From: Patescibacteria group bacterium
GTDB lineage: Bacteria; Patescibacteriota; Patescibacteriia; PEXW01
Assembly: GCA_041665345.1 (NCBI GenBank)
Contig: JBAYJA010000001.1
Coordinates: forward strand, 329,206-393,205
Reading direction: 5' to 3'
DNA length: 64,000 nt
Shown: positions 2,525-51,417 of the stretch, in pieces
Layout of the letters: each line of letters begins with the position of its first letter
Numbering within the stretch: the first letter of the stretch is position 1
Position numbers and translations under genes: made by a program
The notes under the pieces: model-generated
The model's input: only the letters and a program-made list of their open reading frames with translations
Databases searched by the model: none
What the model was told of the DNA's origin: nothing

Positions 2525-2530
2525 TTTTAT

Positions 2531-2559: not shown

Positions 2560-2575
2560 AAACTTTACCTTTGGG

Positions 2576-2583
2576 TGTATAAT
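2576..2583 (+). promoter_or_regulatory. extended -10 (TGTATAAT) promoter element upstream of heliorhodopsin
   Basis: TG immediately 5' of TATAAT, about 33 nt upstream of the ATG at 2616. Confidence 0.45.
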
Positions 2584-3788: not shown

Positions 3789-3930
3789 TAACACAAAATG
3801 AATTTGTCCATCCTTTCAAGTACACGGCACCTATGGAAATGCCGGCATCTGGTAGCGATACAGTACAAGTAGTGCTCCAAGATGAACGCGGCCATGAAGT
3901 ACGTCGGGAGTTAACTGTGCAGTTGCAGCA

Positions 3931-12610: not shown

Positions 12611-13150
12611 ATGTTCACACTTTTTTTGAAGATATTTAGCACGCCGAAGACTGTCATCCCCGTCCAGGATTTTGACCGTGAGCAGGCGGCCATTCTGGCG
12701 GTCGGTGAGCGGTTACAGGAGCAGGTGAAACGCCTCTTCCGTGGTTCTTTGGCTATTCGGCAGGTGGACGCTGGTTCAGACAATGCGTGCGAGCAAGAAC
12801 TCGTCGCCCTTGGGAATGCTTTCTACGATGTAGAGCGTTTCGGTATCCACTTTGTGGCGTCGCCGAAGCATGCGGATATGCTTTTGGTGACTGGCCCCGT
12901 AACCCGGAACATGGCTGAAGCATTGCGGCGAGCGTACGCAGCCACGCCAGAGCCAAAAATTGTGGTGGCCGTTGGCGATGATGCAATCAACGGTGGGATT
13001 TTCAAAGGGTCATATGCGACGCATGATGGCGTTGGGAATGTCATCCCCGTGCACTACCAGATTCCGGGTGATCCACCTACGCCAAAGGTTATTATTTACC
13101 ACCTTCTCAAAATTTTGGAAGGACTCGAAAGAAAACCCACACGCACCTGA
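12611..13150 (+). CDS. NuoB / [NiFe]-hydrogenase small-subunit homolog lacking all Fe-S cysteine ligands
   Basis: Clear NuoB-type alignment (FYDVERFGIHFVASPKHADMLLVTGPVTRNMAEALRRAYAATPEPKIVVAVGDDAINGGIF...PGDPPTP). The conserved CC, SMGxCA and PGCPP positions read ...DNACEQ..., AVGDDA and PGDPP. Confidence 0.8.
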   Translation: MFTLFLKIFSTPKTVIPVQDFDREQAAILAVGERLQEQVKRLFRGSLAIRQVDAGSDNACEQELVALGNAFYDVERFGIHFVASPKHADMLLVTGPVTRNMAEALRRAYAATPEPKIVVAVGDDAINGGIFKGSYATHDGVGNVIPVHYQIPGDPPTPKVIIYHLLKILEGLERKPTRT

Positions 13151-13155
13151 GCACT

Positions 13156-15204
13156 ATGCTAGCTAACATTGCTACACCACTGGGTTTCGTCGCGCTCCTC
13201 CTCCTCTTCACCGTTGGGGCTATCGGTGCTTTGCTCCTTCATCGGCATGACCACCGAGCGAATGTGTGGGGTAGTCTTTTCGCAATCGCTGGTTCGGTGT
13301 GGGGCGTGCTTTTCGCCATTGCGGTACTCGTGGGCGGAAATGACATTGCTGCGGCAGTGCAGCTTTCTCCTTTCCCTTTGTTCACCTTCTCCGTGCACAT
13401 CGACAAGCTTTCCGCTTTCTTCCTTGCGGTCATTTCGCTCATCGCGCTGTTCTCCTCTACCTATGGCATAGGCTACGTGAAGCACTACTACAAGCAGTAC
13501 AGCATTGGCGCCCTAGGTTTTTTCTACAACCTGTTCATCGCAGGCATGCTCCTGGTCGTTTCCGCGTCAAACGGGATTTTTTTTCTCGTCGCCTGGGAAC
13601 TCATGTCCCTTGCTTCGTACTTCTTGGTGGTGTACGACCGTAAGGATGCACAGAACGTGAAAGCCGGGTTCCTCTACCTGGTCATGACGCATGTGGGGAC
13701 GGCCTTCATTATCATCGCATTCCTCTTGCTCTATACCCACACTGGGTCGTTTGACTTTGCGGCTATAAAGGCTGGCGCCGTGCTCATCCCGGCATCTATG
13801 AAGAATGCTATTTTCATTCTGGCAATGGTAGGCTTTGGCACGAAGGCTGGCATCATTCCATTCCACATTTGGCTGCCGAGCGCTCACCCCGCGGCACCTT
13901 CACACGTCTCCGCCTTGATGTCTGGCGTGATGATAAAGACCGGCATCTTCATGATGATCAGGCTTTTCCTGGACATTCTCCAGCCTGTCCCGGCATGGTG
14001 GGGGCTGACCGTCGTGGTGATCGGACTTGTTTCGACATTGCTGGGCGTGCTCTACGCATTGACCGAGCACGATATTAAACGTTTGTTGGCGTACTCTAGT
14101 ATCGAGAATATTGGCATCATCCTCCTGGGCGTGGGGAGCGCCCTCACATTCACCGCTCTGGGCATGCAGCCCCTGGCGCTCATCGGCCTGGTTGCGGCGC
14201 TCTTCCATACGCTCAATCATGCAACATTCAAGTCCTTACTCTTCCTCAGCGCTGGATCAGTCATCAACCAGACACATACGCGCAATATGGAAGAGTATGG
14301 TGGGCTGATGAAATATATGCCACAGACAGCGTTGTTCTTTTTGGTTGGCGCAATGGCTATTTCCGCTTTGCCGCCCTTCAATGGTTTCTTCAGCGAATGG
14401 CTGACCTTCCAAGCACTTTTTCAGGGGATTGCGGCGTTAGATTTTTACGCAAAGTGGATTTTCATTCTTGCCGCTGGTTCTCTGGCATTCACCGGTGGGT
14501 TAGCATTAGCATGTTTTGTAAAAGCCTTTGGTGCAACCTTCCTGGCCCGGCCGAGGAGTATTGCAGTGACGCACACGAAAGAATCTTCCCTCTCCCTGCG
14601 TGTCGGTATGGCTGCCCTCGCAGTATTCGCCCTGGTGTTCGGCGTATTCTCCGGACGTCTAACTTCATTCCTCAATGGTGTTGGTCGTGACCTGCAGGTG
14701 TTTCATTCCTCGACCTCCTTCATTTCCATAAATACTCACCAAAATTTGTCGGCTGGGCATTTTGCCTTCGTGTCTCCACTTGCGCTCTTCGTCTACCTCC
14801 TCATTGCACTGGTCATCGTCGTGCTCGGGGTAAAGTACCTGGTGAACCGCAAGCAGAAAGTGCACCTTGGCGCCACGTGGGATTGCGGGACAGATTTGAG
14901 CCCGCGCATGGAGGTTACTGCTACCGGTTTTTCGCATTCTATTGTTACCATCTTTCAGCGAGTGCTCCGGCCCAGCATCCAGCACGACATTGAGTACCGT
15001 GATGACCAGAGTCGCTACTTGCCGAAATCCAGAACGGTGACGCTTGGGGTGAGCGATCTCTACCATACGTACATCTACAACCCAATTCACACATTAGTGA
15101 CTACTCTTTCCGAACGGACGAAGCATGTCCAAGGTGGGAATATCAACGTCTACCTCCTGTACATCTTCATTGCGCTGCTCGCCGCTCTCGTCGTGATTCG
15201 ATAA
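13156..15204 (+). CDS. NuoL/MrpA/HyfB-like antiporter-type membrane subunit
   Basis: 682 aa, about 16 TM, complex I subunit L/M/N family motifs (…GFGTKAGIIPFHIWLPSAH…). Confidence 0.8.
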   Translation: MLANIATPLGFVALLLLFTVGAIGALLLHRHDHRANVWGSLFAIAGSVWGVLFAIAVLVGGNDIAAAVQLSPFPLFTFSVHIDKLSAFFLAVISLIALFSSTYGIGYVKHYYKQYSIGALGFFYNLFIAGMLLVVSASNGIFFLVAWELMSLASYFLVVYDRKDAQNVKAGFLYLVMTHVGTAFIIIAFLLLYTHTGSFDFAAIKAGAVLIPASMKNAIFILAMVGFGTKAGIIPFHIWLPSAHPAAPSHVSALMSGVMIKTGIFMMIRLFLDILQPVPAWWGLTVVVIGLVSTLLGVLYALTEHDIKRLLAYSSIENIGIILLGVGSALTFTALGMQPLALIGLVAALFHTLNHATFKSLLFLSAGSVINQTHTRNMEEYGGLMKYMPQTALFFLVGAMAISALPPFNGFFSEWLTFQALFQGIAALDFYAKWIFILAAGSLAFTGGLALACFVKAFGATFLARPRSIAVTHTKESSLSLRVGMAALAVFALVFGVFSGRLTSFLNGVGRDLQVFHSSTSFISINTHQNLSAGHFAFVSPLALFVYLLIALVIVVLGVKYLVNRKQKVHLGATWDCGTDLSPRMEVTATGFSHSIVTIFQRVLRPSIQHDIEYRDDQSRYLPKSRTVTLGVSDLYHTYIYNPIHTLVTTLSERTKHVQGGNINVYLLYIFIALLAALVVIR

Positions 15205-15206
15205 CC

Positions 15207-16133
15207 GTGACCATTTTTTTCTCCATACTCCAGGCCATCCTCATTCCTGCACTCTCGCCGTTGGGTGTTGGCTTGGTGAGGAAGCTGAAAGCAAGGTTGC
15301 AGAACCGTCAAGGGGCAAGTGTCCTGCAGCCGTATCGGGATTTGTGGAAGCTTTTTCACAAAGATGAAATTATCAGCACTGACGCGTCGTGGATTTTTCG
15401 TTACGCGCCGTTCATCCTCTTCGCGGTTACCCTGGTGGTGAGCGCGAGCATCCCATTCCTCACGGCCATTCCCGGCAGCACATTGACGAGCGACGTACTG
15501 GTTGTCATCTACACCCTAGCCATTGGGACATTTTTCTTGGCCTTGGCGGGGATGGATACCGGTGGGCCGTTCGGCGGTTTTGGCGCCAGCCGCGAAATGA
15601 CCGTATCCGCGTTGGCCGAAGGTGGGCTTATTTTTTCGCTCCTCACCATAGCTTTGCGGAGCGGTACCACCGACCTTTTTGCCATGTCGAGCGCCTCACT
15701 CATCTCCACTACCAGCTCGTACGTGCCTGTGGCCATGGCATTTGTCGGCTTCTTCATTGTGCTGCTGGCGGAAACTGCCCGGTTTCCATTTGACAATCCA
15801 GCCACACACCTGGAACTCACCATGATTCACGAAGCCATGATTCTGGAACACTCTGGAAAGCGGCTGGCGCTCATGGAGTGGGCCTCAGCAAACAAGCTTC
15901 TCATCTTCCTCTCGCTGGGCGCAAACATATTCTTTCCTTGGGGCATCGCACATAGCTTTGGGTTCGCCGAAATGCTTGTGAGTATTTTGGTTTTTGCGGT
16001 CAAGATGCTCATACTCTACACAGCAATTGCAGTACTGGAGTCGAGCATTGCGAAATTTCGTTTCTTCCGCCTCCCTGATCTACTCATGGTTTCTTTCATT
16101 TTGAACAGTGTGGCTATCGCTTTTCTAAAATAG
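15207..16133 (+). CDS. NuoH/HyfC/HycD-like membrane subunit (GTG start)
   Basis: 308-aa polytopic protein with the complex I subunit 1 pattern; adjacent to antiporter-like subunits. Confidence 0.7.
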   Translation: MTIFFSILQAILIPALSPLGVGLVRKLKARLQNRQGASVLQPYRDLWKLFHKDEIISTDASWIFRYAPFILFAVTLVVSASIPFLTAIPGSTLTSDVLVVIYTLAIGTFFLALAGMDTGGPFGGFGASREMTVSALAEGGLIFSLLTIALRSGTTDLFAMSSASLISTTSSYVPVAMAFVGFFIVLLAETARFPFDNPATHLELTMIHEAMILEHSGKRLALMEWASANKLLIFLSLGANIFFPWGIAHSFGFAEMLVSILVFAVKMLILYTAIAVLESSIAKFRFFRLPDLLMVSFILNSVAIAFLK

Positions 16134-16134
16134 T

Positions 16135-16782
16135 ATGGACACTACCCCTGAGCAAATCCTCCTGACGATATTCTTCCTCACGATTGTGATGCTGCACATC
16201 GTGAAGAAAAACTCTGGCACAGCCATCCTCTACGGCCTACAATCTCTCACTGTCGTTCTGCTGCTCGTGCATACGTTTGCGGCTACCAGGGATATTTCCA
16301 TTCTCATTATTGCCGCCCTTCTACTTATTGTGAAAGTCATTCTTGCACCAAGTTTCTTCCTGCGTCTCATTCGGAAGCACGAGCTAAAATTTTCAGTCAG
16401 CACGTACGTGAACCTACCGTTGACACTTGTCATGGTAACCGTTCTGACAGCCATTGCGCATTCCCAGGTTTTTGGCCCACTCATCAACCACATCCCTGCC
16501 AATCAGCAGTACTTGTCCTTGTCCCTGGCTGCGCTGTTCATCTCTCTCTTCCTCATTGTGAATCGGAAGGGTGCGCTTTCACAAATTGTTGGCATCCTCT
16601 CGCTGGAGAACTGCATCGTTGCCTTTGCACTTTTTGCCGGTTTGGAGCAGTCACCCGCATTGCAAATTGGCGTCCTCTTCGACATTTCAGTGTGGATTAT
16701 TATTGCCAGCGTGTTCATCACCATGATTCACAGGCATTTTGGCACGTTGGACGTGACGGAAATGCGGCACTTAAAAGAGTAA
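16135..16782 (+). CDS. HyfE/NuoK-like membrane subunit
   Basis: 215 aa, 6-7 TM; size and position typical for hydrogenase-4 component E. Confidence 0.6.
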   Translation: MDTTPEQILLTIFFLTIVMLHIVKKNSGTAILYGLQSLTVVLLLVHTFAATRDISILIIAALLLIVKVILAPSFFLRLIRKHELKFSVSTYVNLPLTLVMVTVLTAIAHSQVFGPLINHIPANQQYLSLSLAALFISLFLIVNRKGALSQIVGILSLENCIVAFALFAGLEQSPALQIGVLFDISVWIIIASVFITMIHRHFGTLDVTEMRHLKE

Positions 16783-16786
16783 CCGT

Positions 16787-18229
16787 ATGGAATTGGCACT
16801 CATATTTATCCCACTTCTGCTTGCAACCGCAATTGGCCTGCTCATAAAACGCCAGCGGGTCATTGAGTGGGTTTCGGTTGTCGCAACCGTGGTCGCGTTC
16901 ACCGCAAGTCTCTTGGTCGCCCGCCAGGTGGCTGTGCGTGGTGTGTACGCGGTTGGACAATTTTTTTCGGTGGATGCCCTTGGCGCAATTGTCATGCTCA
17001 TCATTGCGTTCGTTGGTCTGGCGGTAACTGCATACGCGGTATTCTACCTTCGCACGGAAATGACACATGGGATCATCGGTTTTCGTCGGGTGCGCCAGTT
17101 GTACGTGTTGCTCAGTCTTTTCTTAGTGGCAATGTTTTTGGCAGCCACCTCCAGCAGCCCCATTTTTACCTGGCTATCTATTGAGGCCACCACGCTGGCT
17201 ACTGCGTTCCTCATTAGTTTCTACAACAAGCCCACCGCAATGGAGGCGGCCTGGAAGTACCTGATCATTAATTCCGTTGGTCTGCTACTGGCATTTTTTG
17301 GCACGCTGCTGTACCTCACGGTGCTGGAAGGTTCAGGTGGGGCAGATTTTCCAACCTGGAGCAGCCTCCTTGCGAATGCTGCACACCTTGACCCGTTGAT
17401 TGCGAAAATCGCTTTCGTCTTCGCGCTCATTGGCTACGGGACGAAGATGGGTTTAGCCCCAATGCACACCTGGTTGCCAGATGCGCATAGCAAAGCCCCG
17501 GTGCCGATTAGCGCGCTCCTCTCGGGTGTGTTGCTCAACGTTGCGTTCTTCGCAGTCATCAAGTGCAAAGGGGTTACTGACCTCGCCGTGGGTCCAGATT
17601 TTTCTCAGAAGCTCCTCATCGCGTTTGGGGTGCTGACGATTGGGATTGCCGCGCTCATAGTCGTCATCCAAAAAAATTACAAGCGTTTGCTGGCATACTC
17701 AAGCATGGAGAATATGGGGATTCTGGCGCTTGGGTTTGGCTTCGGTGGGCTTGGCATTTTTGCGGCACTGCTCCACACCTTGTACCATGCTCTCCTGAAA
17801 TCCGCCTTCTTCCTGACCGTGGGGAACGTTTTCCTGAAGTACGGCACCACGAAAATTCACCAAGTGCAAGGTGCCCTTCGGATCCTTCCGGTAACGAGTG
17901 TGCTCTTGCTCATTGGTTTCTTGGCCATTACCGGCGCGCCACCGTTTGGGATATTCTTTACGAAAATATACATTCTGTCCGCTGGTATGCAGCAGCACCC
18001 TTTCGTCAGCATCATCGTGTTGCTTTTCATGGCCGTGCTCTTCTACGGCTTCTTCAAGCACATTACCAGTATGGTGTTTGGTACGGCCCCAGCAGACATG
18101 CAACCAGGTCAGCAAAGCGCATGGCTCACAATTCCACCCCTTGTCCTCGTCGTCATTGCGCTCTACCTGAGCCTCCACCTGCCAGCATTCCTCAACACCC
18201 TCGTCCATGCAGCGGCGGCAAAATACTAG
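16787..18229 (+). CDS. NuoN/NuoM/HyfF-like antiporter-type membrane subunit
   Basis: 480 aa, proton-conducting membrane transporter family motifs (…GYGTKMGLAPMHTWLPDAH…). Confidence 0.8.
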   Translation: MELALIFIPLLLATAIGLLIKRQRVIEWVSVVATVVAFTASLLVARQVAVRGVYAVGQFFSVDALGAIVMLIIAFVGLAVTAYAVFYLRTEMTHGIIGFRRVRQLYVLLSLFLVAMFLAATSSSPIFTWLSIEATTLATAFLISFYNKPTAMEAAWKYLIINSVGLLLAFFGTLLYLTVLEGSGGADFPTWSSLLANAAHLDPLIAKIAFVFALIGYGTKMGLAPMHTWLPDAHSKAPVPISALLSGVLLNVAFFAVIKCKGVTDLAVGPDFSQKLLIAFGVLTIGIAALIVVIQKNYKRLLAYSSMENMGILALGFGFGGLGIFAALLHTLYHALLKSAFFLTVGNVFLKYGTTKIHQVQGALRILPVTSVLLLIGFLAITGAPPFGIFFTKIYILSAGMQQHPFVSIIVLLFMAVLFYGFFKHITSMVFGTAPADMQPGQQSAWLTIPPLVLVVIALYLSLHLPAFLNTLVHAAAAKY

Positions 18230-18230
18230 T

Positions 18231-19808
18231 ATGCACGAACTCTTACCAGCCATGGAAAAGTATATCCCAAACGGTACTCGAGCAACGCAATATGGGAACG
18301 CATCGGCATTTGCGGTTCCCGTCGGGGACATTGTTCGCGTTGCTACAGACTTGCAGAAACGGCATGGGTTGACCTTCAAGTGCATTACCGCGACTGACGA
18401 CCGAAACGAAGGTGGGGGATTTACCTTGTGGTACATTTTTAGTGCACGGAACGAGCAAGCATTCGTCATCCCATACATTACCCTGAAGGATACCGATGTA
18501 TTTCCTTCATTGGCGAAGGTCATGCAAAGTGCATGGAACTTTGAAAAGCGAATTCGAAGCTTCTTTGGCCTGCAACTGAGTGGTCATCCAGATGGTCGCC
18601 AAACTGTACTCCATGAGAATTGGCCCACGAATCTTTTCCCGTTACGAAAAGATTTTCAGTGGCAGACCCGTCCTGCAACTGCGCAGGGTGCGTACCCCTT
18701 CCAAGTAGTGGAAGGTGAAGGGATCTACGAAATTCCCGTTGGTCCTATTCATGCTGGGATTATTGAGCCGGGACACTTCCGCTTTAGCGTGGCCGGGGAA
18801 GAGATCGTGCTCCTGGAGCCACGGCTTGGGTTTGTCCATAAGGGCAGTGAAAAGCTTTTTGAGCAAGTCTCACTGGCGGACAAAGTCCGGCTTGCAGAAA
18901 AAATTTCTGGCGATAGTTCATTCAGTCACTCGCTAGCCTTCTGCCTAGCAGTGGAACAACTAGGGAATATCATCGTACCAGAACGAGCAAGTTACCTACG
19001 CGTGATCTTTGCTGAACTGGAGCGGCTGGCCAACCACTTTGGGGATATTGGCGCGATGATGCTGGATACGGGTTTTAACTTTGGTGGGAGTAACGGTGCT
19101 CGCCTGCGAGAAATGGTCATGCAGCTCAACGAGCGCTTAACCGGCAGTCGATTCTTACGTGGTACCAACGTGGTCGGCGGGGTCACCAAGGATATTGCTC
19201 ACGATGCGCAGCAGCAACTCGCGAGTGACTTGCAGGCCATGAAGGAGGATTTTGAGGAAGTTATTGCCATTGCGGAGGGCAGCGTTTCGCTCACCAACCG
19301 TTTGAAAGGTACGGGTGTTTTGACGAACGCCGTTGCTGCAGAGCACGGGATTGTGGGCGTGTCAGCTCGCGCAGCGGGGATTGCCATAGATACGCGCATT
19401 GACTTCCCATACGCGGCGTACGCGAAACTTACTCTTGGTGACATCCCAGTGGAGCAGGCTGGTGATGCTCACGCCCGATTCCAAGTTCGGATAGCGGAAG
19501 CGCGGTCCGCAATGGAGATCATCCAGCAAGCACTTCGGGCTCTGCCCGTCGGCCCCATCGTTACTTCAGTTAACCATGTGGTATTGCAAAAAAGTACCAT
19601 AGCCGTTAGCGCCGTTGAGGGCTGGCGCGGCGAAATTGTATACTTCCTCCAGACTGATACCCAGGGGAATATCAGCCGCGTTGCACCACGGGATCCGTCA
19701 ATCCTCAATTGGGTCGCATTGAGCCATGCTGGGGTAGGCAATGTGGTGCCAGACTTCCCGCTCATCAACAAGAGTTTTAACCTCTCGTACGCCGGGTATG
19801 ACTTGTAA
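18231..19808 (+). CDS. fused NuoC-NuoD / HycE-like large subunit lacking NiFe-binding cysteines
   Basis: N-terminal NuoC-like part (GGGFTLWYIF), then the large-subunit core (PVGPIHAGIIEPGHFRFSV...LGFVHKGSEKL). The L1 motif position reads ISGDSSFSHSLA instead of RxCGxCxxxH; the C-terminus (…KSFNLSYAGYDL) has no DPCxxC. Confidence 0.8.
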   Translation: MHELLPAMEKYIPNGTRATQYGNASAFAVPVGDIVRVATDLQKRHGLTFKCITATDDRNEGGGFTLWYIFSARNEQAFVIPYITLKDTDVFPSLAKVMQSAWNFEKRIRSFFGLQLSGHPDGRQTVLHENWPTNLFPLRKDFQWQTRPATAQGAYPFQVVEGEGIYEIPVGPIHAGIIEPGHFRFSVAGEEIVLLEPRLGFVHKGSEKLFEQVSLADKVRLAEKISGDSSFSHSLAFCLAVEQLGNIIVPERASYLRVIFAELERLANHFGDIGAMMLDTGFNFGGSNGARLREMVMQLNERLTGSRFLRGTNVVGGVTKDIAHDAQQQLASDLQAMKEDFEEVIAIAEGSVSLTNRLKGTGVLTNAVAAEHGIVGVSARAAGIAIDTRIDFPYAAYAKLTLGDIPVEQAGDAHARFQVRIAEARSAMEIIQQALRALPVGPIVTSVNHVVLQKSTIAVSAVEGWRGEIVYFLQTDTQGNISRVAPRDPSILNWVALSHAGVGNVVPDFPLINKSFNLSYAGYDL

Positions 19809-28984: not shown

Positions 28985-29017
28985 GACCGGCAGAAATGTC
29001 GGTCTTTTCTTATTTTT
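28985..29017 (+). terminator. rho-independent terminator
   Basis: gaccggcag-aaa-tgtcggtc hairpin followed by a T-rich run. Confidence 0.7.
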
Positions 29018-29048
29018 GCATTTTCACCAGGGAGCGTACACTGGCTGC

Positions 29049-29714
29049 ATGACCCAGCGCAGAATACATCAAGACGAGTGCCCGTACTTCGTCACCTTCA
29101 ACACGCGGGGAGGGGAGCCGGTGTTTGAAGATGTGCGATTTGCAAAGTTACTCCAGGAGGAAATGTTTACCTCGGCCAGGTTGAAGGGTTTTGATATCTT
29201 GGCATACCAAATAATACCAAACCACGTTCACCTTTTAACCGGCACGCGCACGTTGGAGGAGGATGGTAAAAATATTGTTGGTGGTGATGCACCCACCTCC
29301 GAGGTTGATCCCGTCCCCGTCGAGCGCACGCTTGAGAGCATGCGCTCGGGGGAATTTAAAAGGATTGATAATAATAATTTCCCCGAACCCACTCCGATTC
29401 ACGAACGCGCCTCCCTTGAACGCGCCTCCCCCGAGCGTACCTTCTCTAAGGTGCGCTCGTCCCCGGCGCGTACACCCAAGCCATTCACCATCTCCGACCT
29501 TATACAATCCATCAAAGGGAATTTCTCATACAAGCACAAACTTGGAGCAATTTGGCAACGCCGGTTCTACACTAAAATCGTTAATACCCCGGAGTATTTG
29601 GAAACCGTGGTGGAGTACATCCGCTACAATCCCACCAAAGACGGTTTACCCAAACGTTTCACCCAACCGCCGTACCAATATTTTGATTGGGGGAAGATTC
29701 GGAAGTTGTTTTAA
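29049..29714 (+). CDS. IS200/IS605-like HUH tyrosine transposase (REP-associated tyrosine transposase-like) with an internal low-complexity insertion
   Basis: YFVTFNTRGG..., HUH motif NHVHLL, catalytic-Tyr region AIWQRRFY; about 60-aa insert (ERASLERASPERTFSKVRSSP...) between the motifs, encoded by a tandem repeat plus a palindrome. Confidence 0.65.
   Translation: MTQRRIHQDECPYFVTFNTRGGEPVFEDVRFAKLLQEEMFTSARLKGFDILAYQIIPNHVHLLTGTRTLEEDGKNIVGGDAPTSEVDPVPVERTLESMRSGEFKRIDNNNFPEPTPIHERASLERASPERTFSKVRSSPARTPKPFTISDLIQSIKGNFSYKHKLGAIWQRRFYTKIVNTPEYLETVVEYIRYNPTKDGLPKRFTQPPYQYFDWGKIRKLF
29403..29430 (+). repeat. tandem direct repeat (2 x gaacgcgcctccc) inside the transposase ORF
   Basis: 13-nt unit at 29403-29415 and 29418-29430. 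Confidence 0.8.
29432..29458 (+). repeat. REP-like imperfect palindrome, copy 1 (inside the transposase ORF)
   Basis: cgagcgtacctt-ctct-aaggtgcgctc; 27 nt identical to 29779-29805. Confidence 0.8.
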
Positions 29715-29778
29715 GTCCATTTAATGCATAACAAGCGCAAGTTTGGTCATAACAGTGTAAACGGTGAAAATAATTCCT

Positions 29779-29805
29779 CGAGCGTACCTTCTCTAAGGTG
29801 CGCTC
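29779..29805 (+). repeat. REP-like imperfect palindrome, copy 2 (downstream of the transposase)
   Basis: Exact 27-nt match to 29432-29458. Confidence 0.8.
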
Positions 29806-29837
29806 ACCCAAGTTTATATTATTCATTGTTAATGAAA

Positions 29838-29870
29838 AATGCTCTCCCCGAAGAGAGAGCATTACTTTTT
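29838..29870 (+). terminator. bidirectional hairpin terminator
   Basis: aatgctctc-cccgaa-gagagcatt 9-bp stem followed by ACTTTTT; on the minus strand followed by TTTCATT. Confidence 0.6.
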
Positions 29871-30285
29871 AGAGCATTTTCATTACCGCTTGAATTGCGT
29901 ACTCAATGAATTCTGGTTTTGGGTTACCACTGGTATAGATTGCTGCAGAACGGTCACACTGGCTGCCGTCGATATTATCCCAATCTTGTGACCACGGCAT
30001 GAGGACAAGAACCGTGCGTTTCCAGAACAAGATGCCGGTTTCAAACCAAAAGGTTGCAAACCAGTAGTAACCGTCACTTGTGGTTAGTCCAAGGGGAATA
30101 TCCATGATCGTACTCGCAGTTCCCCTGTAATGTGGGAGCCGCTTGCAGCGGATACGGAGGTCATCCTGGTTTAGTAGTGCGCGATTTGGGTCAGCCAGTT
30201 TCTCGTTAAACTTTTCAATGATCGGCGGGAAAAATGGACCATCGAATTTTTGCAGTTTTGCTTTAGCGTGCCTTCTTTTACTCAT
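29869..30285 (-). CDS. hypothetical protein
   Basis: AAAGGAG RBS before the internal ATG (ORF open to 30318); no recognised domain. Confidence 0.45.
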   Translation of the reverse strand: MSKRRHAKAKLQKFDGPFFPPIIEKFNEKLADPNRALLNQDDLRIRCKRLPHYRGTASTIMDIPLGLTTSDGYYWFATFWFETGILFWKRTVLVLMPWSQDWDNIDGSQCDRSAAIYTSGNPKPEFIEYAIQAVMKML

Positions 30286-30402
30286 ATTTACTCCTTTGTG
30301 TGTATTTTTAATAGCCAATCGTAAATCAGAACTTGCTTTTTGTCAAGCCGCGCGCCAGATCAATAGTTTGGCCACCATGCAGTAGCCCTTTGCAACAAAG
30401 TA

Positions 30403-30430
30403 AACCCCGAGCATCTTGCCCGGGGTTTTT
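30403..30430 (+). terminator. orphan plus-strand terminator (possible small-RNA 3' end)
   Basis: ccccgagca-tctt-gcccgggg hairpin plus TTTTT with no plus-strand CDS upstream. Confidence 0.4.
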
Positions 30431-30450
30431 GTATGCATCGGAAGCAATTT

Positions 30451-30480
30451 AGAAATAAAAAAGCGCTGGTAACAGCGCTT
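30451..30480 (-). terminator. terminator for the minus-strand gene 30497-30829
   Basis: aagcgctg-gtaa-cagcgctt hairpin with a T-run on the minus strand. Confidence 0.7.
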
Positions 30481-30496
30481 TAGGTTTTGTCGTACT

Positions 30497-30829
30497 TCAT
30501 TTGCTTGTAGATCGAAGCATGGTAACGAACATGAGTCGTTCATCTGCCACCCCGCCGTAGTGTTCCGCGACGAGCGCCCTGAGCTTTTCTCGTTGGTAAG
30601 TTGTGGGCAGATGCTGCACGGCAATGGACCGCAGGTGACAGCTCAAGCAAACGTGGATGTACACATTACCGCACGTCTGTAGCTCTTCGGGCAGCTCCTC
30701 TTTGAGGAATGCGCGGGTGGAGTCGCTGCTCCCTTTGTGGTTGCAAAACGGGCAACCGGATGTGTTGAGGGTCTTCCCAGTGACGATTTTTGTACTTCCG
30801 GGGGCGAAACGTATGTTATGAATATCCAT
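30497..30829 (-). CDS. zinc-finger / HNH-like small protein
   Basis: CPFCNH ... CGNVYIHVCLSCH cysteine/histidine clusters; tentative. Confidence 0.35.
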   Translation of the reverse strand: MDIHNIRFAPGSTKIVTGKTLNTSGCPFCNHKGSSDSTRAFLKEELPEELQTCGNVYIHVCLSCHLRSIAVQHLPTTYQREKLRALVAEHYGGVADERLMFVTMLRSTSK

Positions 30830-30924
30830 CGTACCTCCAAACTGGTATGTTTTGTGTTTACGCCATCTTAGTCTGCCGGCACTCTACTGTCAAACCTAAG
30901 CTCAAGCCAGCAAGTGAAAGGGGA

Positions 30925-30953
30925 TTGACAGTTTTTCTTTTTTTTCGTAAGGT
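30925..30953 (+). promoter_or_regulatory. sigma70-like promoter TTGACA-N17-TAAGGT
   Basis: Upstream of the GYD gene. Confidence 0.45.
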
Positions 30954-30988
30954 AGACACACAAAAAAATACAAAGAGAAGGAGGAAAA

Positions 30989-31276
30989 ATGGCAACGTAC
31001 ATTTTGCTTACAAATTTAGGCATTGAGGCGTGTGGATCAAACGAGCAAATGAAAAGCACTTTGCATTTGGTAGAGAAACGTCTGAAGGAAGAATGCCGAG
31101 GTGTCACTTTTGTTGAAGGCTATGGTTGCATGGGGACATATGACCTCGTCTATATTCTTGAGAGTGAGGAACCTCAAACGATTGAAAAAGTAGTTCCGAT
31201 TTTACGGGAATTAGGCCACTCCACAATTCAGACCATGTTAGCTACGCCATTCGAGCAATTTATCAAGGCGTTATAG
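30989..31276 (+). CDS. GYD-domain protein
   Basis: 95 aa; TNLGIEACGS ... EGYGCMGTYDLVYILE matches the GYD family pattern; AAGGAGG RBS. Confidence 0.65.
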   Translation: MATYILLTNLGIEACGSNEQMKSTLHLVEKRLKEECRGVTFVEGYGCMGTYDLVYILESEEPQTIEKVVPILRELGHSTIQTMLATPFEQFIKAL

Positions 31277-31288
31277 GTCCTTTATAAA

Positions 31289-31321
31289 AATCCACCTCCA
31301 TATCGGACGGTGGATTTTCTT
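31289..31321 (+). terminator. rho-independent terminator
   Basis: atccacc...ggtggat hairpin followed by TTTCTT. Confidence 0.6.
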
Positions 31322-31393
31322 ATACCCCATACACTTTTTTTACCTACCAGACTGGGTAAAAGTCTTTTTTAGCTGCGCTAAAGAATTTTGATT

Positions 31394-31423
31394 TACAAAA
31401 AGAGCCACCAATGTTGGTAGCTC
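31394..31423 (-). terminator. terminator for the minus-strand gene 31441-31662
   Basis: gagccaccaa-tg-ttggtagctc hairpin with T-run on the minus strand. Confidence 0.55.
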
Positions 31424-31440
31424 GAGAAATTTTTGGTTGT

Positions 31441-31662
31441 TTAGAGTACCTGTAGTGCATGTAAGCCGGCGAGGATGAGGAGGATAAGTGATATGGCGAC
31501 TATAGCGCCTGATACCGCCATACACACTTCAATGAACCGCATCTCCTTACGTGTGCCTCCTAGCATGACCAAGAAACCAGGAAACATAATTGCAAAGAAA
31601 CTCAGAACACCAATGATTAGTGTGAGTATCCACACCCACCAATGCGCAACAATAAATTCCAT
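31441..31662 (-). CDS. small 2-TM membrane protein
   Basis: GGAGGG RBS; 73 aa hydrophobic. Confidence 0.5.
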   Translation of the reverse strand: MEFIVAHWWVWILTLIIGVLSFFAIMFPGFLVMLGGTRKEMRFIEVCMAVSGAIVAISLILLILAGLHALQVL

Positions 31663-31769
31663 TTTCCCTCCAAATTTCTTAGGATCAATTTTGGCTTCAC
31701 CTTAGGCAGGGCAGGAGAGATTGTCAATGGCTGGTGCCCTACATTTTTCCAGGTTGCTAGAATACCCCC

Positions 31770-31797
31770 ATGCCCCTCCTGGAAACCCTGAACCAAC
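31770..31797 (+). repeat. remnant copy A of the helicase gene 5' end (atgcccct...aaccctgaacc)
   Basis: Shares atgcccct and aaccctgaacc with the helicase start at 33407 and the upstream aataccccc context with copy B. Confidence 0.6.
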
Positions 31798-31872
31798 CAA
31801 GGTTTAGGATTTAGATGAAAAGTTAACCCCACACAAGTACTGTGCGGGGTTAAGGTACTGACAGGAATGCAT

Positions 31873-32163
31873 TTACTTTGTTCCGAAGTACACACTGTTG
31901 TAGTTCGGGGACAAGTCGGCGTTCAGGCCTGGAACGAATTTTTCCCCTCCATTCAGGCCGGTATGGAAGAAGCGGAAGCCGTTTGCTTCATCGGTAACGG
32001 TGAGTTCGCCTGCCACCGGGGAGATAATGGCGGTTTTGCCCGTGGAAAATCTTCCTCTACTGTCACGCTTCTGCGTGAAGTGGTGTTTTCCAAGTTCCAC
32101 GAGTTCACAATGAAGTGGGCACTGTTGCGCGATTTTGGACCAGGACATGAAATTACAATCCAT
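31873..32163 (-). CDS. hypothetical protein inside the inserted segment
   Basis: GGAGG RBS on the minus strand; 96 aa (ORF open to 32214). Confidence 0.4.
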   Translation of the reverse strand: MDCNFMSWSKIAQQCPLHCELVELGKHHFTQKRDSRGRFSTGKTAIISPVAGELTVTDEANGFRFFHTGLNGGEKFVPGLNADLSPNYNSVYFGTK

Positions 32164-32269
32164 TTTAAACCTCCAGTTTGTTTTACCTTTTTGCAATGGC
32201 TTAATGTAGCACATTTCTGTTTCTTGTCAAGTCTTGGCTCTTGTATGCGGAACCTCCTACAATACCCCC

Positions 32270-32352
32270 ATGCCCCTTCTGCCAACTCTCAACCCTGCCC
32301 AAAAGCAAGCGATAACCCACACGGCTGGGCCGCATTTGATTGTGGCTGGCGC
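32270..32352 (+). repeat. duplicated copy B of the helicase gene 5' end (about 83 nt)
   Basis: atgccccttctgccaactctcaaccctgcccaaaagcaagcgataacccacacggctgggccgcatttgattgtggctggcgcggg is near-identical to 33407-33489. Confidence 0.85.
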
Positions 32353-32460
32353 GGGGTGCTCAGTTGGTAATGAGGAGGTTTACCTGGTTTGCATTTGACA
32401 TTATTTTGTAGGTGTGGCAAAGTCTTAGGTCTTCATGTATACTCAAGTACATATTAAGAA

Positions 32461-32667
32461 ATGAGCAAAAATATGGAAAAGGGAACGGAGAAACAATTAT
32501 TTACGGCTATTAAAATAGCCCGTAAGCAACTTTCTGAACTTAGTGTACATCAACGATCAACTCTAGAAAAAACTTGGGATATTGAGCATGCATATTATTC
32601 AAGCACGCTTGAAGGAAGTAAGCTGGATCGATCAGAGTTCAATCGGCTTGGTGAAGAGGTTCAATGA
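32461..32667 (+). CDS. FicA/VbhA-like antitoxin carrying the Fic inhibitory motif
   Basis: 68 aa containing SSTLEG, which fits the (S/T)xxxE(G/N) inhibitory-helix motif; stop overlaps the Fic start (ATGA). Confidence 0.55.
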   Translation: MSKNMEKGTEKQLFTAIKIARKQLSELSVHQRSTLEKTWDIEHAYYSSTLEGSKLDRSEFNRLGEEVQ

Positions 32668-33344
32668 TGGTAAGTTCTGATTTTCGTCGTCCACTAGACG
32701 AGGAAGAACTTCAAAAACGATCAGCGCTTGGAGTAATCCGAGCGTCACGTTTTATTAGAAAATTTGCTCACCAGCATCAACCGATAAACGTTGATGTATT
32801 TTGTGAAATACACAAGAAAATTTTTTTTGATGTGTGGCCTGAAATAGCGGGAACATACAGGCGTGAAAATTTAGAAATCACAGATTCTAAGCTTGTGCTA
32901 CCCCATTATTCAGAAGTTCCTCAATTAATGCACAAAATGAACGAAGACCTAAAGGACAAATTATCCTCCTTAGGCCAGGTTGAAGGAATTATAAATACCT
33001 CTAAAACACATACTGAAGATGAGGAAAAAATAATTGAAGCAACCGAACATGTTATTGGAGTTGCAGCTTGGGCGCATCATCGTATTACCTATATTCACCC
33101 TTTCCGAGAGGGGAATGGTAGAACAGGAAGGTTAGCCGCAAATTTGATTCTAGAAAGGTATGGGCTGGTTGGTATTTCGGTAAAGGTTGAAAAGGAAAAC
33201 AAAAATCGATATCGGAAAGCTTTAGCACAGATTGATGCGGAAAGTGATTATGAACCTTTGATAAGTATTATTTATGAAGGCTTGATTGACCGATATCAAG
33301 GGGTGAGTATTAAGTACTATGAGTATAAGGGAAAGACTCGGTAA
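32664..33344 (+). CDS. Fic-family protein (class I FicT-like AMPylator/toxin)
   Basis: Canonical Fic motif HPFREGNGRTGR; 226 aa without an inhibitory helix of its own. Confidence 0.8.
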   Translation: MMVSSDFRRPLDEEELQKRSALGVIRASRFIRKFAHQHQPINVDVFCEIHKKIFFDVWPEIAGTYRRENLEITDSKLVLPHYSEVPQLMHKMNEDLKDKLSSLGQVEGIINTSKTHTEDEEKIIEATEHVIGVAAWAHHRITYIHPFREGNGRTGRLAANLILERYGLVGISVKVEKENKNRYRKALAQIDAESDYEPLISIIYEGLIDRYQGVSIKYYEYKGKTR

Positions 33345-33406
33345 ACGGATTTTTTAAGACAGAAATAGAATTAGTACATCTGTGAGCAGATTGGTAGACT
33401 AGCATT

Positions 33407-36400
33407 ATGCCCCTGTTGCCAACCCTGAACCCTGCCCAAAAGCAAGCGATAACCCACACGGCTGGGCCGCTTTTGATTGTGGCAGGCGCGGGCACGGGCA
33501 AGACGACGGTGGTGACCCAGCGCATTGCCTGGCTCATTACCGAGCAGAAGGTCAAGCCGGACCACATTCTGGCCCTCACCTTCACGGACAAGGCGGCTGG
33601 GGAAATGGAGGAGCGGGTGGACAAGCTGCTGCCCATGGGCTACGTGGATTTGTGGGTGAGCACGTTCCACAGCTATTGCGAGCGGGTGCTGCGGGACCAC
33701 GCCTTGGATATTGGTCTGAGCCCGGACTTCACTTTGCTGGATGAAACTGACCAAGCGATTCTGATGCGGGAGAATTTGGAGAAGTTTGAACTCAACTACT
33801 ACCGACCGCTGGGCAATCCCACCAAATTTGTGACGAGTTTGATTTCCCATTTTTCACGGTGCAAGGATGAAGCTATTCGACCTGAGGAATACTTGAAGTT
33901 TGCGGAGAAGGTGAAACTTGATTTGGATCAGGTGCATGGCCGCAAAAAGAAATCAGAGGATGATGCCGCGCAGATAGTAGAAGCGGAGAGGATAAACGAA
34001 GTAGCAAATGCGTATCATACATATCAACAGTTATTGTTTGAAAAAAGCTGCTTGGATTTTGGTGACCTTATCACACAGACGCTGTATCTGTTCCAGCAGC
34101 GGCCAAAGATTTTGCAGCGGTACCAGGAGCAGTTCCAGTACGTGCTGGTGGATGAATTCCAAGACACCAACTGGGCGCAGTACGAGCTGGTGAAGATGCT
34201 GGCCGCGCCCAAGAACAATTTGACCGTGGTGGGGGATGATGACCAGAGCATTTACAAATTCCGTGGCGCCAGCGTGGCCAACATTCTGGCGTTCAAGAAA
34301 GACTACCCCAAGGCAAAGGAAGTGGTGCTGACTGAAAATTACCGCAGCACGCAGAACATTCTGGATTTGGCGTATAAATTTATCCAGCACAATAATCCGA
34401 ATCGATTGGAAGTACAGATGCAGAGCCGTAAAGCCGTAAGCCGTAGAGCTGTAAGTTCTGAGGGGAAGAAGGGACAGGGGATAAGTAAAAAACTCGTCGC
34501 ACAGTCAGAAGACACTGGCGAAATTGGGGTGTGGCAAATGCCGACGTTGGAGCAGGAGGCGAGTGCGGTGGTGGAAAAAATAATCGAACTTAAGAAAAAA
34601 AATGCTGAGAGCTCGTACAATGATTTTGCCGTGCTGGTGCGCGCCAATGACCATGCCACGCCGTTTCTGCAGCGGCTAAAGGCGGCAAATGTGCCGTTCC
34701 AGTTTTTGGCCTCGGCTGGGCTGTACCGCCAACCAATTATTTTGGACATTCTGAATTACCTGAAGCTCTTGGACAACTACCACGAGACTGCGAGCTTGTA
34801 CCGGATTCTCACCTTGCCCTTGCTAGCCATTCCTTTGCCAGATGTGATGCACATGCTGGCAGTGGCCAAGCGGGAAACCAAGTCCTTGTTCGACATTACT
34901 AAGCAAGCGCGGGCGCTCACCAGTTTGCAGCCGGCCACCATTGCATCGGTGGAAATTTTGCACGGGTGGTTGGAAGCGCACAGCCAGCTGGCGCGCACGC
35001 AGCCAGTGGGGGAAGTCACCCTGAAGTTCTTGGAAGACTCCGGCATGCTGCAGCAAATTACCGGCACCACGGATGCGGAGCATTTGGAGCAGGTGGGTTT
35101 TGTGAACCAGCTCTTCCAAGTGTTCCACAGTTTCCAGAGCCGGCACGCAGACCCTACGGTGGCTAATTTTTTGCGGGAGCTGGCTTTTGCCCAGGATGCT
35201 GGCGATGCTGGAACACTCAAGCCCCCGGAATGGGAGCAGGGGCCAGAGGCCGTGAAAGTCATGACTGTGCACGGGGCTAAGGGCTTGGAATTTCCGTACG
35301 TGTTCATTGTGAATTTAGTGGACAAGCGTTTCCCAACCGTGGAGCGGCGCGAACCCATTGCCATACCAGATCCGCTGGTGCGAGAAAAAGTACCGGAGGG
35401 GGACTGGCATGTGCAGGAAGAGCGCCGGTTGTTTTACGTGGGTATCACCCGGGCCAAGCGCGGCGTCTTCTTCCTGATGGCGGAGGACTACGGCGGCAGT
35501 CGAAAGAAAAAGCCTTCGCGTTTCATTCCAGAACTCGGAGTGCAGATTGTGTCGAAGCAGGTCCAAGGCAAACTCACCGAAGCACCCACGCAAGCACCGG
35601 GCCGCGTGGATGATGATCACGCCTTGCTGCGCCAGGCCATTCCGGCGGCATTCAGCTTCACACAAATTAAAGCGTTTGAAAATTGCCCTAAGCAGTACAA
35701 GTACGCGCACCTGCTGAAAATCCCGGTGCCGGGCCACGCGTCTTTAAGCTTTGGCCAAACCATCCACAACACTTTGCTCAACTTCTTCAAACTGGCGCGG
35801 GAGCGGAGCATCACTGGCCAAGCAGATTTGTTTGGGACCAAGCCAACGGTCGCGTCAGACAAGCCAGCTGTGAGTTGGGCTGAGCTGCAAGAGTTGTACA
35901 AAGCCGCGTGGATTGACCAGTGGTATGCGAATGTGAAGCAGAAGCAGGAGTACAAGCAGCGCGGCGTGCAGTTTCTCAAAAACTTCTACGACAGTTTGCC
36001 CACGCCCTGGCCGCAGCCTGTGGAACTGGAAAAAGGTTTTACCATTGCCATTGGCGGGCACAAACTACGCGGAAAAATTGACCGCATTGACCCAGCCAGT
36101 GGGGGCATTGCCATTCTGGATTACAAGACCAGCGAGAAACCGCCAACGGATCCAAGCAAAGCAGACCTGGAGCAGCTTCACCTGTACGCCATTGCCGCGC
36201 GGGAAGCCCTGGGCAAAAATCCGGTGAGCTTATCGTACATCTACCTAGCCACGGACAAACCCTACACCTACCCAATTGATGAGGCAGCCATTGCGAAAAC
36301 TAAGGCCAAGGTGGAGGGGACCATTGCCGCAATCCTGGCTAGTAACTTCAAAGCCACCCCAGCCAAGCACATTTGCGACCACTGTGATTTCCGGAATATT

Positions 36401-36424
36401 TGCGAGGATCGGTGGCGGGGATGA
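33407..36424 (+). CDS. UvrD/PcrA-type helicase fused to a C-terminal PD-(D/E)xK Cas4/AddB-like nuclease (AddA/RecB-like)
   Basis: N-terminal LNPAQKQAITHTAGPLLIVAGAGTGKTT (helicase motif I), further UvrD motifs, C-terminal ILDYKTSEKP...HLYAIAA...CDHCDFRNIC (nuclease with Cys cluster). Confidence 0.85.
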   Translation: MPLLPTLNPAQKQAITHTAGPLLIVAGAGTGKTTVVTQRIAWLITEQKVKPDHILALTFTDKAAGEMEERVDKLLPMGYVDLWVSTFHSYCERVLRDHALDIGLSPDFTLLDETDQAILMRENLEKFELNYYRPLGNPTKFVTSLISHFSRCKDEAIRPEEYLKFAEKVKLDLDQVHGRKKKSEDDAAQIVEAERINEVANAYHTYQQLLFEKSCLDFGDLITQTLYLFQQRPKILQRYQEQFQYVLVDEFQDTNWAQYELVKMLAAPKNNLTVVGDDDQSIYKFRGASVANILAFKKDYPKAKEVVLTENYRSTQNILDLAYKFIQHNNPNRLEVQMQSRKAVSRRAVSSEGKKGQGISKKLVAQSEDTGEIGVWQMPTLEQEASAVVEKIIELKKKNAESSYNDFAVLVRANDHATPFLQRLKAANVPFQFLASAGLYRQPIILDILNYLKLLDNYHETASLYRILTLPLLAIPLPDVMHMLAVAKRETKSLFDITKQARALTSLQPATIASVEILHGWLEAHSQLARTQPVGEVTLKFLEDSGMLQQITGTTDAEHLEQVGFVNQLFQVFHSFQSRHADPTVANFLRELAFAQDAGDAGTLKPPEWEQGPEAVKVMTVHGAKGLEFPYVFIVNLVDKRFPTVERREPIAIPDPLVREKVPEGDWHVQEERRLFYVGITRAKRGVFFLMAEDYGGSRKKKPSRFIPELGVQIVSKQVQGKLTEAPTQAPGRVDDDHALLRQAIPAAFSFTQIKAFENCPKQYKYAHLLKIPVPGHASLSFGQTIHNTLLNFFKLARERSITGQADLFGTKPTVASDKPAVSWAELQELYKAAWIDQWYANVKQKQEYKQRGVQFLKNFYDSLPTPWPQPVELEKGFTIAIGGHKLRGKIDRIDPASGGIAILDYKTSEKPPTDPSKADLEQLHLYAIAAREALGKNPVSLSYIYLATDKPYTYPIDEAAIAKTKAKVEGTIAAILASNFKATPAKHICDHCDFRNICEDRWRG

Positions 36425-36653: not shown

Positions 36654-36675
36654 TCAAAGAATAATTATGACAAAG

Positions 36676-36705
36676 TGGGTAGCCCGGGTCCCTTGACCCG
36701 GGCAG
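36676..36705 (+). repeat. 30-nt palindromic repeat, copy 1
   Basis: gtgggtagcccgggtc-cctt-gacccgggca with a perfect 9-bp stem; second copy at 51388. Confidence 0.8.
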
Positions 36706-51323: not shown

Positions 51324-51387
51324 GATGATCGAAACGTGGGTAGCCAAAGCCCTCGCTTTGGCAGTATTGGCGTACGTTTTTTACCAA

Positions 51388-51417
51388 GTGGGTAGCCCGG
51401 GTCCTTTGACCCGGGCA
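51388..51417 (+). repeat. 30-nt palindromic repeat, copy 2
   Basis: gtgggtagcccgggtc-cttt-gacccgggca; differs from copy 1 only in the loop. Confidence 0.8.

Follow-up and report, generated by a model that had tools for sequence, protein, structure and literature searches.

The 64-kb stretch of DNA analysed here (the window) is part of a 1.08-Mb MEGAHIT contig from an uncultured Candidatus Kerfeldbacteria/Patescibacteria genome of the Candidate Phyla Radiation (CPR), and it carries a gene for a helicase-nuclease whose start is present in three copies. Our analysis indicates that the start of this gene is probably a recurrent integration point for small cassettes, each of which brings its own gene-start segment. 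From left to right, the locus consists of copy A of the gene start, a gene for a protein of 96 amino acids (aa), copy B, a putative Fic toxin with its antitoxin, copy C and the helicase gene itself. The original prediction, made from the sequence of the window, was of serial insertions at the helicase gene's 5' end, by which the gene start is regenerated, and this is supported by the nearest relative and by two distant CPR lineages. Toxin genes seem to move at the helicase start without carrying an integrase or a transposase. What the analysis adds is that the arrangement recurs: the nearest relative has another toxin in the same slot with an identical end point, and in other CPR bacteria Fic genes repeatedly lie between duplicated gene starts.

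Copies of the helicase gene start

The helicase gene and the copies of its start are located as follows (positions with a sign are counted from the first nucleotide of the ATG, +1).

33407..36424, plus strand: gene for a UvrD/PcrA-type helicase fused to a PD-(D/E)XK nuclease, 1005 aa (Pfam UvrD-helicase 6e-87, UvrD_C, PDDEXK_1 5e-34)
31750..31794, plus strand: copy A, displaced helicase gene start with the -10 box TAGAAT (31758-31763), ATG at 31770 and the first 25 coding nucleotides (nt)
32250..32356, plus strand: copy B, displaced helicase gene start covering -20..+87, with the -10 box TACAAT and ATG at 32270
33387..33493, plus strand: copy C, functional helicase gene start covering -20..+87, with the extended -10 box TGgTAGACT and ATG at 33407

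In the repeat scan, copies B and C form an 86-nt direct repeat (32270-32355 and 33407-33492, 93% identity), and they agree at 80 of 87 nt over +1..+87 and at 88 of 107 over -20..+87. The repeat had been predicted as about the first 83 nt of the helicase gene recurring at 32270-32352, and it proved to be slightly wider. It includes a stretch of 43 nt that is 100% identical (32291-32333 and 33428-33470), is unique to these copies in the window and has an expectation of 0 matches in window shuffles. A shorter remnant, expected near 31770-31797, was recovered as copy A, which is 76% identical to both B and C. Copy A has the exact 16-mer ATACCCCCATGCCCCT in common with B (0.03 chance matches expected), and its local-alignment scores of 23-26 exceed 15, the highest chance score in the window on either strand. 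No further copies of the helicase gene start were found in the 64-kb window. The direct repeats that bracket the two cargo segments thus cover -20..+87 and -20..+25. The upstream context reads AATACCCCC in A and B and ACTAGCATT in C, which agrees with the claim that A and B share a context absent from C. Copy B reads on into a 42-aa open reading frame (ORF) ending at 32398, composed of 29 helicase residues and 13 others.

A -10-like hexamer precedes the ATG by 6 nt in all three copies (TAGAAT in A, TACAAT in B and TAGACT in C). The same spacing, without a Shine-Dalgarno sequence, is characteristic of helicase starts in this clade, with the hexamers TAAACT and TAAAAT in the related loci L002 and L001, respectively. 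Judging from this arrangement, the helicase gene is probably expressed as a leaderless mRNA, in which case the repeated unit would comprise a promoter together with the first codons. Homologues of the helicase-nuclease are present in many lineages, so the gene is conserved across CPR bacteria. Neither a tRNA nor another non-coding RNA was found as a target at the insertion site (no Rfam matches).

The differences between copies B and C have an allele-like character. Seven codons differ, and six of these differences are synonymous; if B had drifted neutrally after duplication in place, about 40% would be expected to be synonymous, and the probability of at least six of seven is 0.019. The divergence therefore fits two functional alleles that were joined, rather than one start that was duplicated in place.

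As a separate observation, some CPR homologues of the helicase (P0181, P0193, P0196 and P0197, 1343-1385 aa) contain Hint/intein-splicing domains, which makes the helicase gene an intein target as well.

The cargo segments

The two segments bracketed by the gene-start copies contain the following features.

32414..32443, plus strand: promoter-like site GTGGCA-18-TATACT, upstream of the antitoxin gene
32461..32667, plus strand: antitoxin-like small protein with SSTLEG, 68 aa from 32461, the start at 32473 (64 aa) being likelier
32664..33344, plus strand: Fic-domain protein of 226 aa with HPFREGNGRTGR (Pfam Fic 6.7e-18)
31873..32163, minus strand: older cargo gene, 96 aa, with a GGAGG site upstream; called as a gene in the source record
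31823..31853, minus strand: terminator-like hairpin of the 96-aa gene, a 14-bp stem followed by a T tract
32203..32230, minus strand: promoter-like site of the 96-aa gene, TTGACA-16-TACATT with TG, 10 of 12 matches

The segment between B and C (1,030 nt) is AT-rich, as predicted: its GC content of 37.9% compares with 54% in the helicase gene and 51% across the window, so that the composition of the cargo is foreign to that of its target. The predicted gene pair was found here with its motifs. The start of the Fic gene overlaps the end of the small ORF as ATGA, indicating translational coupling, and the Fic active-site motif HxFx(D/E)GNGRxxR is present as HPFREGNGRTGR. In an alignment of 26 members of the small-protein family, S47, S48, L50, E51 and G52 are invariant; this SSxLEG signature corresponds to the inhibitory motif (S/T)xxxE(G/N). 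The small protein itself has no match in Pfam, NCBIfam or the PDB.

The assignment of the pair to the class I FicT/FicA modules holds for the architecture and fails for the sequence family. Class I modules (VbhT/VbhA, FicT/FicA) resemble the pair in the Fic core motif and in having the inhibitory motif on a separate, small, upstream and coupled protein, whereas the putative toxin of the window is closer by sequence to the single-chain FICD and SoFic. The nearest solved structure is FICD (3e-12), with VbhT at only 5e-4; the protein scores 23 bits with the NCBIfam VbhT model, whose cut-off is 800, and the scores also lie far under the SoFic and NmFic equivalog cut-offs. The best PADLOC matches are the candidate defence family PDC-S04 (3.4e-23) and SoFic (3.8e-17). 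As far as sequence comparison can tell, the Fic protein is not a member of the VbhT/FicT families, and the pair is class I by architecture only, with its predicted inhibitor on a separate chain. In hhalign, the small-protein family matches the N-terminal inhibitory-helix region of single-chain Fic proteins from related loci (E 7.6e-5, probability 62%); this similarity was found by profile comparison alone, BLASTP of the small protein against single-chain Fic giving no signal. By descent, the pair therefore looks like a split single-chain Fic. More than 280 Fic homologues with identities of up to 65% were retrieved, apparently all from CPR-type metagenome bins, and an ORF of 64-81 aa precedes the Fic gene in every retrieved context.

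The segment between A and B (455 nt, 46.6% GC) contains a single gene on the minus strand, as had been stated, which encodes 96 aa and has its own promoter and terminator. A few weak homologues of its product exist (80-103 aa), two large proteins show repeat matches to it, and Pfam, NCBIfam, PHROG and PADLOC have no match. That the Fic cargo is the younger of the two is supported by its position and its 38% GC, but not by the identity of the repeats, since the copies look like different alleles. In both window inserts, Pfam and NCBIfam searches found no transposase or integrase, Fic being the only match.

Recurrence at the helicase start in relatives

About 160 CPR helicase loci (2.4 Mb) were compared. 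The nearest relative (helicase P0154, 75% aa identity) is represented by loci from three samples (L179, L180 and L181), and L179 has flanks orthologous to those of the window: a RAYT-like gene on the left and the helicase, DciA, PheS, PheT and GyrB genes on the right.

29016..29714, plus strand: RAYT-like Y1 (IS200-like) transposase homologue (Pfam Y1_Tnp 2.7e-6; NCBIfam REP_Tyr_transpos 2.5e-21, just under the cut-off)

This gene is orthologous to L179:3238-3819 (59-70% aa) and forms the conserved left flank of a variable region. The interval from the RAYT-like gene to the helicase measures 3.7 kb in the window and 5.2 kb in L179, with no homology between the two, and is a hypervariable slot. 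The comparison with relatives thus showed the same slot with another cargo; an empty site was not found, the closest relatives being at 75% aa.

The cargo adjoining the L179 helicase is a 91-aa ORF with a HicA toxin gene (Pfam 4.2e-9), and up to four copies of the gene start are present in the nearest relative. The helicase-start remnant upstream of the HicA pair (8318-8391) is 93% identical over 74 nt. This remnant (R3) and copy B diverge from their functional counterparts at the same alignment column, +87, after GGCGCGGGG and directly before the Walker-A codons. The Fic and HicA cargos have no sequence in common, such as arm sites, above the level of shuffles. Two more short remnants in L179 end at +14 and are accompanied by hairpin-rich non-coding segments. 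In the sister genome L002, the first +14 remnant is followed by a 107-aa ORF and then by the working start, so that L002 and L179 provide a partial before-and-after comparison. The L179 remnant contains CCATCTCTGAATGACGCTC, the allele found at the functional start of L002, while L179's own working start reads TCATCTTTGAATAGTGCTC; on the simplest reading, the resident start survives as the remnant and the working 5' end came in with the cassette.

In the same loci, GC-rich hairpins (CCCGCCTGCCTTCGCC...GGCGGGCAGGCG) lie directly after the +14 remnants (L179 8040-8089 and 8219-8268; L002 40-130). They form a tandemly duplicated unit of about 180 nt, and one of these hairpins cuts a remnant in two.

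Two further helicase loci, from more distant lineages, have copies of their own gene start, against a background maximum score of 21 for own-gene-start copies upstream of helicases.

L123, helicase start: repeat of 77 nt at 77%, score 41; cargo a RhuM-Fic/Doc protein and a broken IS110-family gene
L138, helicase start: repeat of 47 nt at 83%, score 29; cargo a 111-aa orphan ORF

The IS110-family gene of L123 (1564-2661, minus strand) encodes a DEDD transposase in two ORFs; it is situated within the bracket of duplicated starts, with the RhuM-Fic gene on one side and the helicase start on the other. Repeats near the helicase starts of L139, L104, L152, L065, L088 and L005 were rejected as gene-start copies, being intergenic and terminator-type or of low complexity, and the weak protein matches upstream of the helicase in L021 and L027 are at background level.

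Gene-start duplications and Fic genes at other targets

Similar duplications were found at the starts of other genes.

L023: repeat of 55 nt at 82%; target a gene for a 683-aa secreted-type protein; cargo a Fic-HTH gene and a Y1 transposase homologue
L092: repeat of 83 nt at 84%; target a TatD gene; cargo a Fic gene and two other genes

Many of the differences between the copies in L092 and L123 are synonymous or conservative. In the loci centred on the helicase gene, in which this enrichment was measured, four of the six assessable Fic/Doc genes are spanned by a direct repeat with E < 1e-6, compared with 22 of 300 random positions (7.3%; P = 4e-4). Gene-start duplication occurs at the helicase in 3 of 157 loci and at about 3 of 2,250 other genes (P = 0.04 with the window excluded), a comparison biased by the way the loci were collected; the helicase start itself may be a preferred target.

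A repeat of 32-53 nt brackets a Phd/Doc-like pair in L068 (5912-5963 and 6649-6701), statistically at background level. The pair has the RarA gene on one side and the cytidine deaminase gene on the other; the repeat, near-identical over 32 nt, covers the 3' end of RarA and the start of the deaminase gene, and L077 has the same gene order. In L164, nested direct repeats surround a Fic pair homologous to that of the window (2414-2583 and 6565-6738; 3889-4001 and 8690-8804), at 72 nt with 75% and 115 nt with 89% identity. DpnI, AbiEii and another Fic gene are also present in the defence-type island to which this pair belongs, and the first repeat includes a long hairpin element.

A model for integration at the gene start

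We propose that the incoming DNA would consist of cargo and its own helicase gene start, extending from the -10 promoter box up to the first 29 codons. The incoming gene-start segment would recombine with the resident start, so that the cassette is integrated in the manner of Campbell. The resident promoter and start would stay upstream as a truncated remnant, now reading into the cargo, while the incoming copy would become the working 5' end of the helicase and the gene would survive. Repeated rounds would stack cassettes, the newest adjoining the helicase. The intermediate may be circular or linear, and the crossover could be made by host homologous recombination or by a trans-acting site-specific recombinase with its core near +80..+87. 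Allele-like differences between remnant and working copy are what either Campbell-type or site-specific integration of gene-start-bearing DNA predicts. Were the cassette excised via its repeats, the empty-site junction would read the left arm of B, the core and the right arm of C (ATGCCCCTTCTGCCAACTCTCAACC...GGGCCGCTTTTGATTGTGGCAGGCGCGGGCACGGGC), and the junction of the excised circle would read the left arm of C, the core and the right arm of B, followed by GTGCTCAGTTGG.

The end points of the repeats bear on the nature of the crossover. The shared end at +87 speaks for a fixed site of crossover or cleavage, whereas the other ends, and the fact that the target genes differ, speak against one single specificity. 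As for the cargo, a toxin pair probably persists through retention, the loss of an addictive pair being penalised, and there may also be a mechanistic link between toxin cargo and integration.

Several observations weigh against recurrent integration of this kind. Genome and metagenome contig scans, a cluster look-up and a homologue search yielded no conspecific genome with an empty site, the closest having a helicase at 75% aa, and neither a circular nor an excised form of the cassette was observed. The remnants end variously at +14, +25, +38, +65 and +87, and one fixed site-specific core therefore cannot explain all events. For RecA-dependent exchange, the stretches of identity are short, at 43 nt in the window and 12-22 nt in other loci. 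Since the older cargo gene lies on the opposite strand, promoter capture is not a general feature. Finally, most homologues of this Fic pair have no flanking duplication: among eight contexts of the pair, a strong flanking repeat (E of 1e-6 or better) was present only in the window and L164, L167 having a weak repeat of 32 nt. The flanking-repeat signature is accordingly either short-lived or not universal.

A wider generalisation is offered tentatively, and we doubt it more than we believe it: that CPR bacteria harbour micro-cassettes without a recombinase gene, whose sole mobility module is a portable promoter with a 5' fragment of a conserved host gene, and which use a defined crossover beside the Walker-A codons, made in trans or by host recombination, to bring toxin-antitoxin or defence genes (Fic, HicA) to that gene's start. 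Such micro-cassettes could excise as circles via their flanking repeats.

Alternative explanations

The strongest competitor, although we consider it rather unlikely, is a true target-site duplication. A staggered break, or one-sided homology followed by an illegitimate join at GC-rich microhomology, would have copied 30-110 nt of the target, a process already suggested for restriction-modification genes inserted with long target duplication, with the differences between copies arising later by mutation or allelic recombination. The locus has the features of the published definition, namely repeats longer than 30 bp, an insert shorter than 20 kb and no mobility gene (PMC2853133), and the end points do differ among events. 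Even the shared end at +87 lies at the most GC-rich run, GGCGCGGGG, where illegitimate joins may be favoured and where microhomology could bias them. Against these points stand the six synonymous differences among the seven between B and C, the L179 remnant, which matches the working allele of L002 and not its own working copy, and the occurrence of the same end in two genomes with unrelated cargo, which is unlikely by chance (roughly estimated at about 3%).

It is improbable that the cassettes are decayed remains of integrase-bearing elements that targeted the helicase 5' end, as SXT/R391 elements do at prfC, and of which only toxin-antitoxin genes and attachment-site repeats survive. Such an origin would account for the regenerated gene 5' end, the tandem cassettes and the one shared end point, and the cargo kept in the window and in L179 is indeed a toxin-antitoxin pair. 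However, no tyrosine or serine recombinase was detected in the approximately eight inserts examined, all of 0.1-3 kb, and independent decay to the same minimal state every time is unlikely. In the annotated part of the 64-kb window (about 3-64 kb), Pfam matches to an integrase or resolvase are absent. Viral contigs gave no matches to the helicase-start core or the Fic protein, that is, no phage-borne attachment site or Fic gene.

An artefact of assembly or binning, by which helicase starts of two strains were fused in one contig, is hardly credible and can be dismissed: although the sequence is metagenome-assembled and copies 93% alike are as expected of strain variants, the join is the same in the output of three assemblers, with no more than 1 mismatch in 8.8 kb, the cargo is unique and has intact genes, a promoter and a terminator, and the relative shows the same architecture in three other samples. 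Such an artefact had been named as what would refute the serial insertions. The same arrangement occurs in a JGI contig (1 mismatch in 8,839 nt against the window), and a Logan contig runs from B-specific into C-specific sequence across the same join, although the MEGAHIT, JGI and Logan assemblies may share sample or reads (another contig pair connects ERZ27249449 with SRR6484324). The identical core of B and C is only 43 nt, shorter than a read, and its flanks are unique, which makes mis-assembly very unlikely.

Two details of these contigs are recorded separately. A 1,154-nt Logan contig was rejected as a possible circular form: its ends, at repeat offsets 34 and 50, would be the expected k=31 graph breakpoints, which makes it uninformative. 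The sole mismatch of the JGI contig (L082), at about 35078 of the window, seems to coincide with a split of the helicase gene into two ORFs (557 and 446 aa), attributable either to a sequencing error or to a nonsense variant at the strain level.

Comparison with known systems

The closest described kind of event is insertion with long target duplication, which is defined operationally by repeats longer than 30 bp, an insert of less than 20 kb and the absence of mobility genes (Furuta, Abe & Kobayashi 2010, PMC2853133). It has been described for all types of restriction-modification system, chiefly in species capable of transformation, and its mechanism is open (PMC2853133); an earlier report is cited there as Nobusato et al. 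2000, Gene 259:99. A 2013 review gives long target duplication for restriction-modification systems only (PMC3874152). In our literature search, we found no report of long target duplication for toxin-antitoxin modules or for CPR bacteria, nor specifically of Fic in CPR.

The locus falls under this definition in every respect other than an empty-site genome, which is the defining comparison in the published work. In both cases, direct target repeats that are long and variable (tens to hundreds of bp) surround a gene pair of addictive or selfish character, and the insert has an atypical GC content and no transposase or integrase. Immediately flanking repeats longer than 30 bp are formed here by B and C (80/87 nt, with about 20 nt upstream) and by A and B (over 45 nt). 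The differences are that the cargo consists of Fic and HicA toxin-antitoxin pairs and orphan ORFs, and not of restriction-modification genes as in all published cases; that the target is repeatedly the promoter and 5' codons of one conserved gene; and that the events are stacked, the copies allele-like and the hosts CPR bacteria.

The movement of toxin-antitoxin and defence genes outside plasmids, phages and transposons is poorly understood, and long target duplication is the one described route free of recombinases, without a mechanism since 2000. Mobile elements of CPR bacteria, in which this locus lies, are barely charted. The value of the locus is that it offers a recurrent target with stacked events and allele-level traces of donor and recipient, as well as two toxin cargos in two genomes with the same end nucleotide. 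Because every insert supplies a spare promoter and first codons, the start of an important gene can take repeated insertions. If micro-cassettes of the proposed kind exist, they would extend long target duplication from restriction-modification to toxin-antitoxin genes, and a long-unexplained process would gain a tractable, recurrent target.

Gene starts are regenerated in other ways as well. Integrative and conjugative elements of the SXT/R391 family integrate in the 5' end of prfC, supply a new promoter and 5' coding sequence, and form tandem arrays; at about 100 kb, they carry a tyrosine integrase gene of their own. The helicase locus resembles them in the regenerated gene 5' end and the tandem accretion at one site, and differs in that its inserts are of 0.1-3 kb and encode no recombinase. 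A common crossover point, which is expected of the SXT/R391 type, is seen at +87 in copy B and in R3 of L179, whereas the other events end at +14, +25, +38 and +65.

Cis-mobilisable elements of Streptococcus thermophilus are integrase-less, bounded by attachment sites and derived from conjugative elements with a known integrase. Minimal mobile elements of Neisseria are small cargos between conserved flanks that are moved by transformation and homologous recombination, with no duplicated gene start. The cassettes described here share with both the small cargo between conserved flanks or attachment-site repeats, which may likewise move in trans or by transformation and homologous recombination, and they differ from minimal mobile elements in the presence of a duplicated gene start. 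An integron gene cassette was rejected, as there is no integrase, no inverted repeat at the cassette ends and no Rfam match.

Left flank and other features of the window

29715..31749, mixed strands: older variable region with ORFs of 149 aa (minus), 110 aa (minus), a GYD-domain protein (plus) and 73 aa (minus)

This region (46% GC, with mixed strands within a mostly plus-strand genome) has no counterpart in the nearest relative, the interval from the RAYT-like gene to the helicase being without tblastx matches to L179. The claim that no integrase or transposase is present holds for 31760-33500 and the inserts, but not for the surroundings, where the RAYT-like Y1 gene (29016-29714) lies 2 kb upstream. 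This gene is about 110 nt longer than its L179 orthologue, the extra stretch being located between two conserved blocks (29262-29459). It holds a 26-nt imperfect palindrome, GAGCGTACCTTCTCTAAGGTGCGCTC (29433-29458), which recurs exactly 66 nt past the stop codon (29780-29805). The palindrome looks like a hairpin of the repetitive extragenic palindromic (REP) type inserted in frame into its own putative transposase gene. The RAYT-like transposase was rejected as the agent of the insertions, as was IS200/IS605 or REP-RAYT mobilisation in general: the gene is a conserved flank, the palindrome occurs only at 29433 and 29780, away from the cassette junctions, and the long target duplications seen here are not made by this family.

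Two features are unusual for a CPR genome: a complex-I-like or group-4 hydrogenase-like cluster at 12611-19808 (Oxidored_q6, two Proton_antipo_M, NADHdh, Oxidored_q2 and Complex1_30kDa/49kDa), and a heliorhodopsin gene in the first approximately 3.4 kb of the window, ending near 3407. A 40-nt intergenic repeat (36665-36704 and 51378-51417, 90% identity) forms a GC-rich hairpin, GGGTAGCCCGGGTCC..TTGACCCGGGCA, and is probably a shared terminator or a REP-like element. At 61861-63555, seven diverged 51-nt repeats encode dockerin or EF-hand-like calcium-binding modules in a Peptidase_S8 protein of 1,088 aa.

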